Source: Eledone cirrhosa (lineage: Eukaryota). From it: 64,000 nt of DNA. Under the pieces are notes generated by a model that saw only the letters and a program-made list of their open reading frames with translations, ran no database searches and was not told the DNA's origin. Where the stretch lies: positions 39,246,001-39,310,000 of the forward strand of contig OZ024747.1 of the NCBI GenBank assembly GCA_964016885.1, in the 5' to 3' direction. The position numbers were made by a program, and so were the translations under genes. Positions 8,641 to 55,958 of this stretch are shown piece by piece. Position 1 is the first letter of the stretch. Every line of letters begins with the position of its first letter.

Positions 8641-8673
8641 CTATATATATATACATATATAGGAACGAGTAGG

Positions 8674-8769
8674 ACCCCGACGGCTGAGCTCAAGCCGTTT
8701 CGACTGCTAATTCTGGACTAAATGAACATTTTTATCCTGGTATATGAATAGCCGAGCTTCTCAGGGGGT
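8674..8769 (-). ncRNA. Type I hammerhead ribozyme (family C, core CTGAGAA)
   Basis: acccc CTGAGAA gctcggcta...tagcagtc GAAA cggct tgagctc agccg TC ggggt. Confidence 0.7.
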
Positions 8770-9420
8770 AATTCCATATATGGTAAAAGTGATTGTCACA
8801 AGGATTGGTCAAAAGTTTGTTGTTGAGACACATAATTCTATCATGGCAATTTGTGGAAGGAAGGGGTTGTTGAACCTGCCAGTAGAAGAAACTACCACGA
8901 AATAATAATTCAGAGTCCCGAAACTGAATTATTATTTCGTGGTAGTTTCTTTAGTATTTTGGCCCCCCACTTGTTGACCTATCACCGTAAGATATACTCG
9001 GTTGATTAGTACTAACTATTAAAATGGTCTCTATACAATTCCGTCCCACCTAGTAAACCTTTCTATAGTTTAGCAGTACCAGTGAGAGACTCGATGACTG
9101 TCGTTAGGGAATAGTAACCAGAAATTGTTTTTTTATATTTTTAACATTTTTGGTATTCTTCTATATATTTATTCCATATTGATTTACTTATTGTTTCGAC
9201 TTCCTCCCCCCCCTCCCTAGTATACTTTCTTGACCTCCTGCCCTGCTGTAGTTGGAACTATCAACGCACGACTGGGTTTCCTCCACTCCCTCTCCCTCTT
9301 TCTTCTACTGGCAGGTTCAGCTACTCCTTCCTTCCACAAATTGCCATGATAGAATTATGTGTCTCAACAACAAACGTTTGACCAATCCTTGTGACAATCA
9401 CTTTTACCATATATGGAATT

Positions 9421-9516
9421 ACCCCCTGAGAAGCTCGGCTATTCATATACCAGGATAAAAATTATCATTTAGTCCAGAATTAGCCGTCGAAAAGGCTTGA
9501 GCTCAGCCGTCGGGGT
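9421..9516 (+). ncRNA. Type I hammerhead ribozyme (family C, core CTGAGAA)
   Basis: acccc CTGAGAA gctcggcta...tagccgtc GAAA aggct tgagctc agccg TC ggggt. Confidence 0.72.
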
Positions 9517-10809
9517 CCTACTCGTTCCTATTACCCACTCTACTACCCTAAGTATTGAGTACTTTGGTGCGTTATGGTCCACCTGTTTCCTTATCACATT
9601 TCCTTCATTATATATATATATATATATATATATATATAGATATAGATATAGATATATAGATATATATATATTCAATTGAAGAAAGTTGATTGATTAAAAA
9701 TCTGCCGACTTATTCTTTAACAGACGTGAAGCACTCCACAGTTTTTATTCATCTGGAGTTTATTACAATAAATAAGAGAGACGGTTTTATTTAACATCCC
9801 TATTTTATTCGTTATTCGTATTTCGAAGATGTAAGGTAATTATATAATAGCTTCCTTACGTGTTCGCTTCAAACAAATATTCAAAGAGAACAAAAAAAAA
9901 GGTGTATCAGCTGCATCATTCGAGCAAAAGGCATTATAGTGGTGAATAGTTTGAGACAGCGGCTGCAACAGACATCTACCTTACGGTAGCATGTCTGTTA
10001 CAGAAAAACTAACTGATACAAAATGTTAAAGAAGACGATACGATATAAAAGAATGTAGAAAATATTATTTGTAAAAAGGGAGAAGTGTATCTATGTGTGT
10101 ATTCGATTTAAAATTTATTTGCATGTATGTAGAAATAGTATAGAAAGTTATAAACATCTAATTTGAGGATTTATATATTTGAGTCGTTAAACTAAGGGAT
10201 ATAGGAATCAGGTTGCATACATTTCAACGTATATCGGTAAATGCATAATTGCAGAGTCACATACACACACTTGGACTTTTATAATACATGCAGATTTTGA
10301 GTACTCACCGGTGTTTCTCGCTCCTCTTTTCCAGTCCTGGGGATTATTTAACCGGCAATTTCAAGGTTGACCTTCTATAATTATGATAACCAACGCGAAA
10401 TTTCAAAAATGTATATGTATGTATTCACCCGCAACTCTCAAGAGAGACTTAGGAACACCAGATTGATATACGCCGTGTTTAGGGCCTTTCAGAACCTGGT
10501 GTAGCCCATTTCTGCTTCAGGTCTGAATACAGCAGATCTAGTCTAGAGAAGGATAGAGAGAGTGAAGGAATGGAAGTGAGAAAGGAGTATAGAGGACAAA
10601 TCTACCGCAGTTGGCTGGTACATTTTTATTGACCTTAAATGGATGAAATGCAAATTCCAGCGAGATTTAAACTTAGAGAGCAGAGAGTCGGAACAGATAC
10701 TGCAAAGCGGCTCAAGTTTAGCTCTTTTTACAAAACGTTCTTTTTCCATCATCCGCTTTTCTAAAAAAAAATCATACACAAAACGCCAGCACCAACGGTT
10801 TACAAACAG

Positions 10810-11030
10810 ATGTCAAAATGAATGAACCTGTTATTTTTATCTAAAGACATTTTTGCGAATACCAACCCGCCCATCCCCTCAATCTATCCTATCTCTCATT
10901 CTTTCTTCTGATGAAGGACTAGGGTCCGAAACGTTAAGACCCTCTTCCTGCTACATCAAGCGTTAACCTAATATATACCTCCCATATACTGTACCGATTG
11001 TGTTGTTATTTCTGTTTACCTTTTACATAC
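10810..11030 (+). mobile_element. Solo pLTR-like repeat, family B (second copy 62075-62280, minus)
   Basis: Dispersed homology, contains an HHR, and ends in (CA)n. Confidence 0.7.
10904..10939 (+). ncRNA. Minimal type I hammerhead ribozyme (family B)
   Basis: tctt CTGATGA a ggac tagg gtcc GAA ACGT T aaga. Stem III is the palindrome ACGT. Confidence 0.85.
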
Positions 11031-11229
11031 ACACACACACACACACACACACACACACACACCCACACACATATATATATATATATATATATATATATAT
11101 ATATATATATATATATATATGTGTGTGTGTGTGTTTATGTGAGTGAGTGTGCGTGTGTGTATTATTATACGTCCGTACGAAACTAAGAAGAAGTGTGTGT
11201 GTGTGTGTGTGTGTATATGTGAGGAAAAG

Positions 11230-53216: not shown

Positions 53217-53334
53217 TATATATATATATATATATATATATAACGAAGTAAATGTGGTAAGGAACCAGGTGGACCATAACGCACCAAAGTACTCAATACT
53301 TGAGGTAGTAGAGTGGGTAATGGGAACCAGTAAG

Positions 53335-53428
53335 ACCCCGACAGCTGAGCTCAAGCCGTTTCGACGGCTAATTCTGGACTAAATGAACATTTATCCTGGT
53401 ATTTAAATAGCCGATCTTCTCAAGGGGT
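53335..53428 (-). ncRNA. Type I hammerhead with U3:A8 core (family C)
   Basis: Reverse complement of 55680-55773. Confidence 0.8.
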
Positions 53429-54544
53429 AATTCCATATATGGTCAAAGTGATTGTCCAAAATTAGTAGTAATTCTGTGGTTGAAAATTAGTAGGGGAGAT
53501 GGTGGCTAAACCTGCCAGTAGGAGAAAGAGGGGAGGGGTGGAGTAGACCCAATCAAGCGTTGGTAGTGCCAGCTACAGCTGGGCATGAGGTCAAAGAAGA
53601 TACAGGGGAGGGGGAGGGGGAGGAAGTCGGAACGGTAGGTAGAACAATGGGGGGTAGAAATATATAGGAAAGAAAAAATACTGAAGGTGAAGAAAAGCAA
53701 ATAAGTGTAAAGAAAAAAGTAAAGTAAATTAAATTCTACGACCTAGGTCTCTAGCTATTGTTAGGCCAGAATAAATAAATAAAGAAAGAAAGAAAGAAGT
53801 AAAGAAAGAAATAAAGAAATAACGAAATAAGTAAAAGAACTAGGTGGGACGGATTAGGCAAGGACACTTTTAAGAGGTATAAGTACGTAAATGATACGGT
53901 GACGGGTCAACAAAAGGGGCCAAACTACTAAAGAGACTACCACGAAATAAACAATAAAGGTTTCCATCCCGGGCACAATGCCAGCAACCACCCAGTGCAG
54001 CAAAGTGAACTTGTACGAGATAATAATTCTGAGTCCCGAGAAAAATATATACTAATGCTAACTCTAAAAGATCTAAAACAAGCTACATGAAAGTTCGTAC
54101 GAAGTAAAGGTAGAATACGGAAAAATAAATTCAGAATCCACCCCGCCCAAAAGAAAAGCGAAGAAAGAAATACTGAAACGAAAAAATAAGGCATAAGTGC
54201 CACTAAGAAATATAGAGGGCACAGAGAATAGTGGGAGCGGTCGGAAAAAGGGGACAAGTATCCGGGGTCTAAACCAACTGCTATAAAGGGCGGAGTCCGC
54301 CAAATCTATCATAGACTAGGGGAGGCGGTGGGGGTACTAAGGCTACAAGGGGCCAAAGGGCAGCCTCGGGTGGGCGAGAAAAGACGCCGACAAAGGAGAA
54401 GAGCTGGGGTAGAAGGACTAAGGAGAGAGGGGGGAAGGAAATAAAGGAAGCGATAAAAGAATACAAAGAAGATCTTACGTCTCCCTTGGCAAGCAGGGGT
54501 TACCCATTGCAAAATCGGCAAGTGGGGTGTGATAGCCCTAGTCT

Positions 54545-55260
54545 ACCCCCCCCCCCGGGTCATTATGGGGTTTGAGGGCGAGGTAAGTCCTACGCAATCT
54601 ATGTTTACATGCAGTAACCAGTTCATCTTTCTTGTTTAGGAGTTGGTCCGTCGAAAACAGCATTTGTAAAGTTTCCCCCGAGTATAAATTGCACGGACGG
54701 CGTCCTCCCGTGTAAGAATTGGCTCTGGACAGTAATCTCCAAGTGAGATCATAGGTGATGTTGTTGTCCTTGAGGTCCCATATGCGGCCCGAAAGTGTAG
54801 TGGCGTGACGCCGGGCCGGGTTTCAGAAGGTATGTCTATGTTGGTATAGCTGGGTCTTGAAGTCACATGCGGTAAGTCCTATATAGGCTTTGTTGGAGGT
54901 ATCCGTCCTCACGTTGCACTGGTAGATCACATTACGGTCTCTGCATCTATTGTCGAGTGGGCAAATAGATATATCCGGGCAGTTACACCTCCTGGTCGGT
55001 TCTCCACTGCTATTTAGGTTATTTCTGCCATCGGGGTTGAGTTTTTTGTTGTTAGAGGAGACGATGTTTTGTGCGAAGTTTGGTGTAGTGCTGTAAGAGA
55101 GTTTGATGGTATTTTTGTTAATTATGTTGTGGTAGCGGTGTTGTAATGGGAAGTGTTTTTCAATGAGCCAAAAGAATAGTTTCCCGATGGGAGTTGTCAC
55201 CTCTGCGTTGTGGGGAGGATTGAACCATGTTACATTGCGTGAGCGGCGGTGTCTCCTGCT
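54545..55260 (-). pseudogene. Naiad-type GIY-YIG endonuclease, one in-frame TGA
   Basis: ORF 54823-55200 continues in frame after TGA: NPARRHATTLSGRIWDLK...CNLY...LLNKKDELVTACKHR. Confidence 0.85.
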
Positions 55261-55679
55261 GGTTCCGCTAATTTACTTATTTCGTTATTTCTTTATTTCT
55301 TTCTTTACTTCTTTCTTTCTTTATTTATTTATTTATTCTGGCCTAACAATAGCTAGAGACCTAGGTCGTAGAATTTAATTTACTTTACTTTTTTCTTTAC
55401 ACTTATTTGCTTTTCTTCACCTTCAGTATTTTTTCTTTCCTATATATTTCTACCCCCCATTGTTCTACCTACCGTTCCGACTTCCTCCCCCTCCCCCTCC
55501 CCTGTATCTTCTTTGACCTCATGCCCAGCTGTAGCTGGCACTACCAACGCTTGATTGGGTCTACTCCACCCCCTCCCCTCTTTCTCCTACTGGCAGGTTT
55601 AGCCACCATCTCCCCTACTAATTTGCAACCACAGAATTACTACTAATTTTGGACAATCACTTTGACCATATATGGAATT

Positions 55680-55773
55680 ACCCCTTGAGAAGATCGGCTA
55701 TTTAAATACCAGGATAAATTTTCATTTAGTCCAGAATTAGCCGTCGAAACGGCTTGAGCTCAGCTGTCGGGGT
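55680..55773 (+). ncRNA. Type I hammerhead with U3:A8 core (family C); predicted cleavage after GUC at 55768
   Basis: acccc TTGAGAA gatcggcta...tagccgtc GAAA cggct tgagctc agctg TC ggggt. All three stems pair. Confidence 0.82.
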
Positions 55774-55958
55774 CTTACTGGTTCCTATTACCCACTCTAC
55801 TACCTCAAGTATTGAGTACTTTGGTGCGTTATGGTCCACCTGGTTCCTTACCACATTTCCTTCGTTATCTAGCTCCTACTCCCGTAGTAGAGCACTTTCC
55901 GACCCTACCACGCCGTATCCAGACTTTTCCGCTAAGCTCAATTCATTTCACCCGCACC

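Follow-up and report, generated by a model that had tools for sequence, protein, structure and literature searches.

What decides where copies of Penelope-like elements (PLEs) end when they lie directly against (TA)n microsatellites? The question is raised by a 64,000-nt stretch of the Eledone cirrhosa genome (C7:39246001-39310000 of a 3.0-Gb animal genome; hereafter the window), which is dense in microsatellites and in repeats adjoining (TA)n, and in which an initial annotation had listed eight 3' junctions of three PLE families, here termed C, A, and E. All eight were borne out by direct reading, each within 2 nt of its listed place. We consider it very probable that these junctions represent two fixed PLE 3' ends in (TA)n, a short, tail-less one (S) and a long, tailed one (L), and that both derive from reverse transcription starting at two predetermined internal positions on uncleaved RNA, one for each DNA end of the cut target. 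The observation made in the initial annotation is thus confirmed, and its mechanism, in which nicked (TA)n primes by pairing with internal UA motifs on an RNA spanning the ribozyme, is partly supported.

Copies of family C were sampled by an exact genome search with a 27-nt motif lying upstream of both ends, with the reversed motif as control. Exact motif matches numbered 35,134 for family C, 7,226 for family A, and 4,055 for family E, and each reversed control gave 0. The family C sample comprised the first 100 places listed of the 35,134, from the first 19 Mb of contig C1, which were read as 79 loci with 142 arms and were selected blind to their 3' ends; the family A sample held 43 arms and the family E sample 30 motif copies. 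One of two places was used by 130 of the 142 family C arms (64 at S, q515-520; 66 at L, q593-603; numbered so that q453 is window position 55724), by 42 of 43 family A arms (24 S, 18 L, 1 other), and by 29 of 30 family E copies (18 S, 11 L, 1 other), with S-L spacings of 80, 60, and 41 nt, respectively. The 12 family C arms ending elsewhere included five of S type ('tcctat/(at)n'; a slash marks the junction throughout) past a diverged or deleted stretch, one of L type past a deletion, and one read-through into the open reading frame (ORF), which leaves five true exceptions. This pattern of ends is far beyond chance.

Raw DNA reads of three further individuals gave the same picture when set against family C. 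Loose ends continuing into (AT)n were found at 55788 (S) in 2907, 2596, and 2649 reads and at 55868 (L) in 7398, 8050, and 10149 reads, and the only other (TA)n loose ends among the best-supported ones, with 668 weaker rows left aside, were subfamily forms of the same two family C ends. Past L, read depth fell from ~8,500-10,500 to ~8-43 (about 0.1-0.5%). Most restriction-site-associated DNA (RAD) reads on family C stop at 55735 (AATT, window 55735-55738), probably the restriction site of the library.

The copies of the three families in the window, with their strands and ends, are as follows.

8659..8891, minus strand: family C inverted arm with an S end at 8659-8663, read in reverse complement ('...gttcctat/atat'), beside (TA)n at 8642-8661; 96.6% inverted match to 9299-9531.
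9156..9611, plus strand: family C direct arm, partner of 8659..8891; L end at 9608 ('ttcatta/tata'), followed by (TA)n at 9609-9671.
9424-9511, plus strand: hammerhead-like motif in that direct arm, with a CUGAGAA box.
19734..19790, plus strand: solo 57-nt family C arm with an S end ('cctat/atat', 19786-19790), preceded by (AT)10 and followed by (TA)20.
43464..43615, plus strand: 3' part of a diverged family C-like copy, 85% to 55716-55868, with an L end at 43615 ('cttcgtta/tata').
53241..55271, minus strand: inverted 5'-truncated family C copy; L end in reverse complement at 53241-53245 (53242 in the initial annotation), pseudo-long terminal repeat (pLTR) to 53835, then the ORF's 3' part, which extends to the inner joint at 55272.
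55272..57020, plus strand: family C pLTR and start of the ORF; UUGAGAA at 55684-55690, GAAA at 55746-55749, predicted cut after 55768.
55786-55788 (S) and 55866-55868 (L), plus strand: the two sites on this family C reference copy, whose ORF is open to 57020.
36713..36935, minus strand: family A inverted arm with an S end at 36713 ('aacaatat/', reverse complement of 36713-36720); hammerhead motif at 36905 on the minus strand.
36954..37546, plus strand: family A direct arm; CUGAAGAG...GAAA at 37294-37322, predicted cut after 37328.
37486 and 37546, plus strand: S-equivalent position and L end ('gaaatat/', 37540-37546) of that direct arm, then (AT)n at 37543-37688.
3585..4172, minus strand: family A copy with an L end at 3585, flanked by 'atat' only; its 5' end at 4172 adjoins (TA)n.
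52736..53058, plus strand: family E copy with an S end at 53058 ('accaatat/', 53051-53058).
49294..49652, minus strand: family E copy with an L end '...ctattcttttaaa/' at 49294, 41 nt longer.
20009..20326, plus strand: family E copy that is an exception, stopping ~12 nt before S ('ttttcc/tata'), where other copies continue 'gtttaccaatat...'.

Both ends are internal to a longer RNA, as the initial annotation had it, for the same sequence reads on into the ORF at 55868 and in a second sampled copy, locus L096. On the reference copy, the family C sequence continues as quoted there, with 'cctattacc' from 55784 and 'cgttatctag' from 55864, and then runs on into the ORF (55758-57020). Because the reference copy 55272-55868 continues into the ORF, 'cgtta' is the point where the partial-tandem pLTR meets the next unit, with 'cctat' lying 80 nt upstream.

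The strongest regularity appears when arms are considered together. Most family C arms lie in head-to-head pairs with their tails outward, and 52 of 57 such pairs combined one S end with one L end (S on the left in 26, L on the left in 26), with no S+S and no L+L pair and with one odd end in each of the remaining five; under independence, the probability of such an excess is 0.5^52 = 2e-16. The same combination was found in all nine tight and all five looser pairs of family A, in all four tight and both looser pairs of family E, and in the window, where 8659 (S) is paired with 9608 (L) and 36713 (S) with 37546 (L). The two end classes of the initial annotation are the tail-less and the tailed end of one type of insertion, and not independent insertions.

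The two arms of a pair also resemble each other more than arms in general. Over the 44 nt common to both arms in 42 family C pairs, partners differed at a mean of 0.86 positions, compared to 2.84 for permuted partners (0 of 300 permutations below 2.31), and the arms were identical in 21 of the 42 pairs, compared to 5.7 expected. The inner joint varied between copies, with a 1-5 nt overlap in 28, a blunt joint in 6, and 1-20 nt of filler in 13 of 47 family C pairs; in one pair (G000 C1:4947020-4947066, L033/L034), the filler is a run of 18 T/A. In 15 of these 47 pairs, the S arm extended beyond the 5' limit of the L arm by 10 nt or more (158 nt at most), and the reverse was seen once. Together, the shared variants, the tail found only on L arms, and the longer 5' reach of S arms show that both arms were copied from RNA of one source and that neither was copied from the other.

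A mechanism that would produce such insertions has been described in a cell-free assay. In the Poseidon PLE of Anolis carolinensis, reverse transcription starts at two adjacent internal sites that delimit the tail; cleavage and extension affect both target strands, and insertion is unchanged in hammerhead mutants, which indicates that uncleaved RNA is the substrate (PMC11167929). By analogy, the enzyme-RNA complex would set both start points in the families studied here, probably on the same RNA molecule, and the 3-6 nt matching the (TA)n primer would do no more than fix the register or help. The S-primed copy would then extend to the 5' end of the RNA, the L-primed copy would follow and sometimes stop early, and the two copies would be joined at short overlaps. 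The very numerous short family C pairs may be run-off copies of a transcript beginning near 55724.

Features in common with Poseidon are two discrete sites downstream of the hammerhead cut, a tail between them, an AT-rich target, priming by both target strands, and an uncleaved RNA template (PMC11167929). Differences exist as well. The tail measures 41-80 nt here and 30-40 nt in Poseidon; the sites lie in the untranslated pLTR here (in family C, ~90 and 170 nt upstream of the ATG), whereas those of Poseidon lie 111-118 nt inside the ORF; and the strict rule of one S and one L end in genomic pairs is not reported for Poseidon (PMC11167929). Both sites share 3-6 nt with (TA)n in our families, whereas the Anolis study stresses the absence of homology (PMC11167929), which weakens the identity with that case and not the likeness of mechanism.

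Several points weigh against reading the junctions in this way. Identity with (TA)n extends over 3-6 nt at each of the five or six sites, and in these families, whose target is (TA)n, pairing may have a larger role than the favoured explanation gives it. In the Anolis assay, the same start sites were seen for top and bottom strands, so that the strict S+L rule is not predicted by that assay alone (PMC11167929). The S:L ratio was ~1:3 in the reads and ~1:1 in the assembly sample; reads with 96 nt of (TA)n were probably lost, and the stop of RAD reads at 55735 makes the read ratio unreliable as a ratio of copies. Finally, one RNA molecule as the source of both arms is indistinguishable from two RNAs of one source locus.

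A more far-reaching form of the same explanation, which we put forward tentatively and regard as possible, would make each insertion a single concerted event. Here, both ends of one (TA)n break would engage two fixed UAU sites 41-80 nt apart on the same RNA and be extended together, which alone would yield the inverted arm and the one-sided tail by which PLEs are distinguished; pairing with (TA)n would fix the register, and transcription beginning within the hammerhead's helix II loop would account for tens of thousands of mini-pairs.

Such a start may lie at 55724. Of the 142 family C arms, 110 have their 5' start within q441-474, with a peak at q453, which is the A of TCATTT at 55724 and lies 25 nt after TATTTAAATA (55699-55708), and reads of the three individuals also stop at 55724. 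Judged from these sequence features, 55724 is a putative transcript start inside the helix II loop. This loop measures ~41 nt and holds a TATA-like box, and the short family C pairs mostly lack the first half of the hammerhead.

The hammerhead motifs differ between families. Family A has a full CUGAAGAG...GAAA core by motif reading, with a 5-bp helix II and a 3-4-bp helix I, and its arms span it uncut. In family C, the box reads UUGAGAA in young copies or CUGAGAA in others, with A at position 8 and thus not CUGANGA, and the helices are 4-5 bp. No hammerhead core was seen in the family E copies. Rfam gave no hammerhead in the window at gathering score and none at E<=10 around the C and A motifs, a strict hammerhead descriptor found only two unrelated candidates, and the predicted folding of 55724-55900 and 9418-9530 was not more stable than that of shuffled sequences (z -0.72 and -0.94). 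With the cut placed by motif reading, the ends lie at +20 and +100 past it in family C (after 55768) and at +158 and +218 in family A (after 37328). Since every arm is contiguous across the ribozyme site, the initial annotation was right that the template RNA spans it; the re-ligated or circular RNA that it also considered is not needed, uncleaved RNA being the reported template for the Anolis element (PMC11167929).

PLE hammerheads are described as showing U3-A8 covariation in the core (PMC4209133). The minimal hammerheads reported there resemble our motifs in this feature, in being of type I and located in the pLTR, in a helix III that is short or palindromic, and in "dual" motifs on opposite strands with 100-700 bp between them. 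Family C differs from them in its helix II loop of ~41 nt with a TATA-like box, and its motif receives no score from Rfam models. At 55684 and 9426, the hammerhead box is polymorphic in its first letter: T, giving a U3-A8 pair, is found in young copies, C gives a C3.A8 mismatch at 9426, and 44% of the contig depth of run X1 at 9426 is T. Further CUGANGA...GAAA motifs with a good helix II occur at 37740, 61110, 57650(-), 45542, 44596(-), 30509(-), and 40033, in other repeat families and several of them by (TA)n. Around the family C tail, a 9-bp complementarity between CUCUACUAC and GUAGUAGAG (55794-55802 with 55885-55893) brackets most of the tail and the L site, a small hairpin CUCAA-GUA-UUGAG (55807-55819) lies inside the tail, and CUGGUUCCU is present at S and ~17 nt before L.

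The initial annotation proposed that nicked (TA)n anneals to any internal UA or UAU on the RNA and that this pairing decides where reverse transcription begins. Part of its premise stood. A UAU or AUAU in phase with the flank is present at every S and every L site: the letters shared are TAT for S and L of family C, ATAT for S and L of family A, and AATATAT for S of family E; at least six in-phase flank letters follow 60 of 64 S and 61 of 66 L ends of family C; and the rare shifted junctions often still share 'ta', as in 'cctatta/tata'. Selection of the site by pairing did not stand, and we consider it improbable. Only two places are used in each family, and other UA-rich motifs go unused. The other two TATs in the 100 nt of family C, at 55810 and 55830, ended 0 of 142 arms, and in family A neither the 7-nt ATATATA at 37334 nor the TATA motifs at 37383, 37399, 37410, and 37476 ended any of 43 arms. 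That richer UA motifs are passed over implies that pairing with (TA)n does not choose the site, and a few junctions share no letters at all ('cgtta/cacata', 'cctattac/atat').

Another account, likewise with little probability in our view, turns the (TA)n tracts from targets into products, in that a telomerase-related reverse transcriptase would copy UAU repeatedly. The junctions are always in phase, as it would predict, and PLE reverse transcriptases are related to telomerase reverse transcriptase according to the available part of PMC8557442. Family B offers a further parallel. It is a solo element of ~260 nt (window 10810-11120; L127-L139) with a good hammerhead motif at 10908. Past its terminal '...ttttaca' comes a (CA)n stretch that differs in length between copies, with (TA)n beyond it. 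By its appearance, the (CA)n is a tail produced by the element in front of a (TA)n target, which also made this family uninformative when considered as a test of start-site covariation with a non-TA target. Against (TA)n as a product, solo 5'-truncated arms carry (TA)n on their 5' side as well, as at 19713-19733 in the window, three times in locus L079, and at C1:5226791, C1:18890913, and C1:14196000, and so do 4 of 13 family B copies. Some ends adjoin little or no TA ('ataacaat/ctaaaaag', 'gaaatat/ctctatatctc', 'cgttat/atcatcatc'), and Naiad, Hydra, and Neptune PLEs are reported to target (TA)n in the portion of PMC8557442 available to us. Since solo arms carry (TA)n on the 5' side too, the tracts are mostly target, as the initial annotation assumed, and lengthening by slippage may add to them.

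Other repeats recur beside (TA)n tracts in the flanks of L019, L031, L098, and L135 ('...gatattaacaaatggaaactatattt...', '(atc)n gggtttagcgtccgt...'), so that TA microsatellites act as landing sites common to several families. A short palindromic repeat, 'ttggccggagacagttgaattaata...', lies between two (TA)n tracts at 53075-53218 and 49209-49287, beside family E and C ends.

It is very unlikely that L is the sole start and that the first cDNA folds back and is copied until S to give the inverted arm. Such a snap-back would explain the near-identical arms, the constant coupling of S with L, and the 1-5 nt overlaps at the fold point in 28 of 47 pairs. The additional 5' sequence of the S arm in 15 of 47 pairs, absent from the L arm, speaks against it because such an S arm is not a copy of the L arm; solo S arms also occur, and two starts of reverse transcription were seen directly in vitro for another PLE (PMC11167929). 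Fold-back DNA transposons similar to miniature inverted-repeat transposable elements, moving as a unit and duplicating TA, would share the inverted-repeat shape, the TA-rich flanks, and the very high copy number, but they can be dismissed as extremely improbable given inner joints that vary by copy (many different ones link 8701-8721 to 9467-9477), ends that are unequal by a fixed 41-80 nt, and full-length copies with a putative reverse transcriptase ORF that have the same ends.

Two fixed sites on an uncleaved RNA remain the favoured explanation, and locus L096 connects the family C ends with a full-length element. This copy has a pLTR-ORF-pLTR structure whose frame is open for 786 codons; its left, inverted arm terminates at L and its right side at S, and its unit period is ~3.1 kb, slightly over the size of the Hydra clade (generally <3 kb). 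Endonuclease-bearing PLEs carry a single ORF in which a C-terminal GIY-YIG endonuclease follows the reverse transcriptase. By eye, the frame contains the reverse transcriptase motifs FDIESYY and YRDD, and its residues 646-697 align to the GIY-YIG stretch of a PF01541-positive ORF of the window (BLASTP E 2e-4). P0002 reads ...HSDKTGNLYF..., with DKT in place of DKG, a stretch of P0002, ...ISGTSRRHRRS..., can be recognised (also by eye) in the minus-strand frame 54826-55272, and CNCPDRSIC in the family C frame fits a CxCX5C linker. No match was found for the full family C ORF in Pfam or with a PDB sequence profile, and Pfam on 20 ORFs of the window gave one GIY-YIG match, in another element. The 661 homologs (~700 aa) carry PF26215 or PF28514 only, and a minority of members of the Atlas neighbours carry GIY-YIG or RVT_1.

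The DKT and CxCX5C marks are those of the Hydra clade in the available part of PMC8557442, which places the linker before the endonuclease and gives the CCHH motif as lacking in this clade. The family C frame thus appears to be of Hydra type, its assignment as a reverse transcriptase resting on motifs and on that published description; an earlier label, "Neptune-like", was replaced on the basis of the clade description given there. For endonuclease-bearing PLEs, the same text describes a one-sided tail, an inverted arm, and (TA)n targets, and our families are alike in the partial tandem of the pLTR, the inverted 5'-truncated copy at the 5' side, and the preference for (TA)n. Both structures are present here: 53241-55271 (-) adjoins 55272-57020 (+), and L096 has a pLTR on both sides and an inverted arm upstream. 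In what is available of PMC8557442, the one-sided tail is given without counts and the mechanism is called undefined, whereas here the rule is quantified and the arms are found to share a template. Animal non-LTR retrozymes, according to the available part of a recent preprint, are non-coding hammerhead repeats that originate from PLE pLTRs and are probably mobilised by the enzymes of PLEs; they are tandem units thought to pass through circular RNA, whereas the short pairs found here are not tandem (bioRxiv 10.64898/2026.07.22.740005).

Overall, the finding is the genomic footprint of the Anolis-type mechanism in other families, and the advance is incremental because this footprint and its probable cause have been published before. 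What is added, to a modest degree, is a count-based S+L rule and the evidence that both arms share a template. A related outcome is familiar from human L1 twin priming, in which both target DNA ends prime on one RNA and give rise to an inverted 5' segment, with the inverted and direct parts adjacent and non-overlapping on the RNA and the second site variable. The insertions studied here are similar in that both target ends would prime on one RNA; unlike those of L1, their arms overlap almost fully and both sites are fixed.

Integration of PLEs is still poorly understood, and a cell-free study in 2024 found two internal starts. In genomes of this kind, the in vivo outcome is preserved in tens of thousands of young insertions, and the S+L rule together with the shared template represents a set of constraints on any model of PLE integration. 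In addition, S+L pairs explain the crowding of TA microsatellites in this genome with hairpin-shaped repeats, which annotation pipelines may call DNA transposons.

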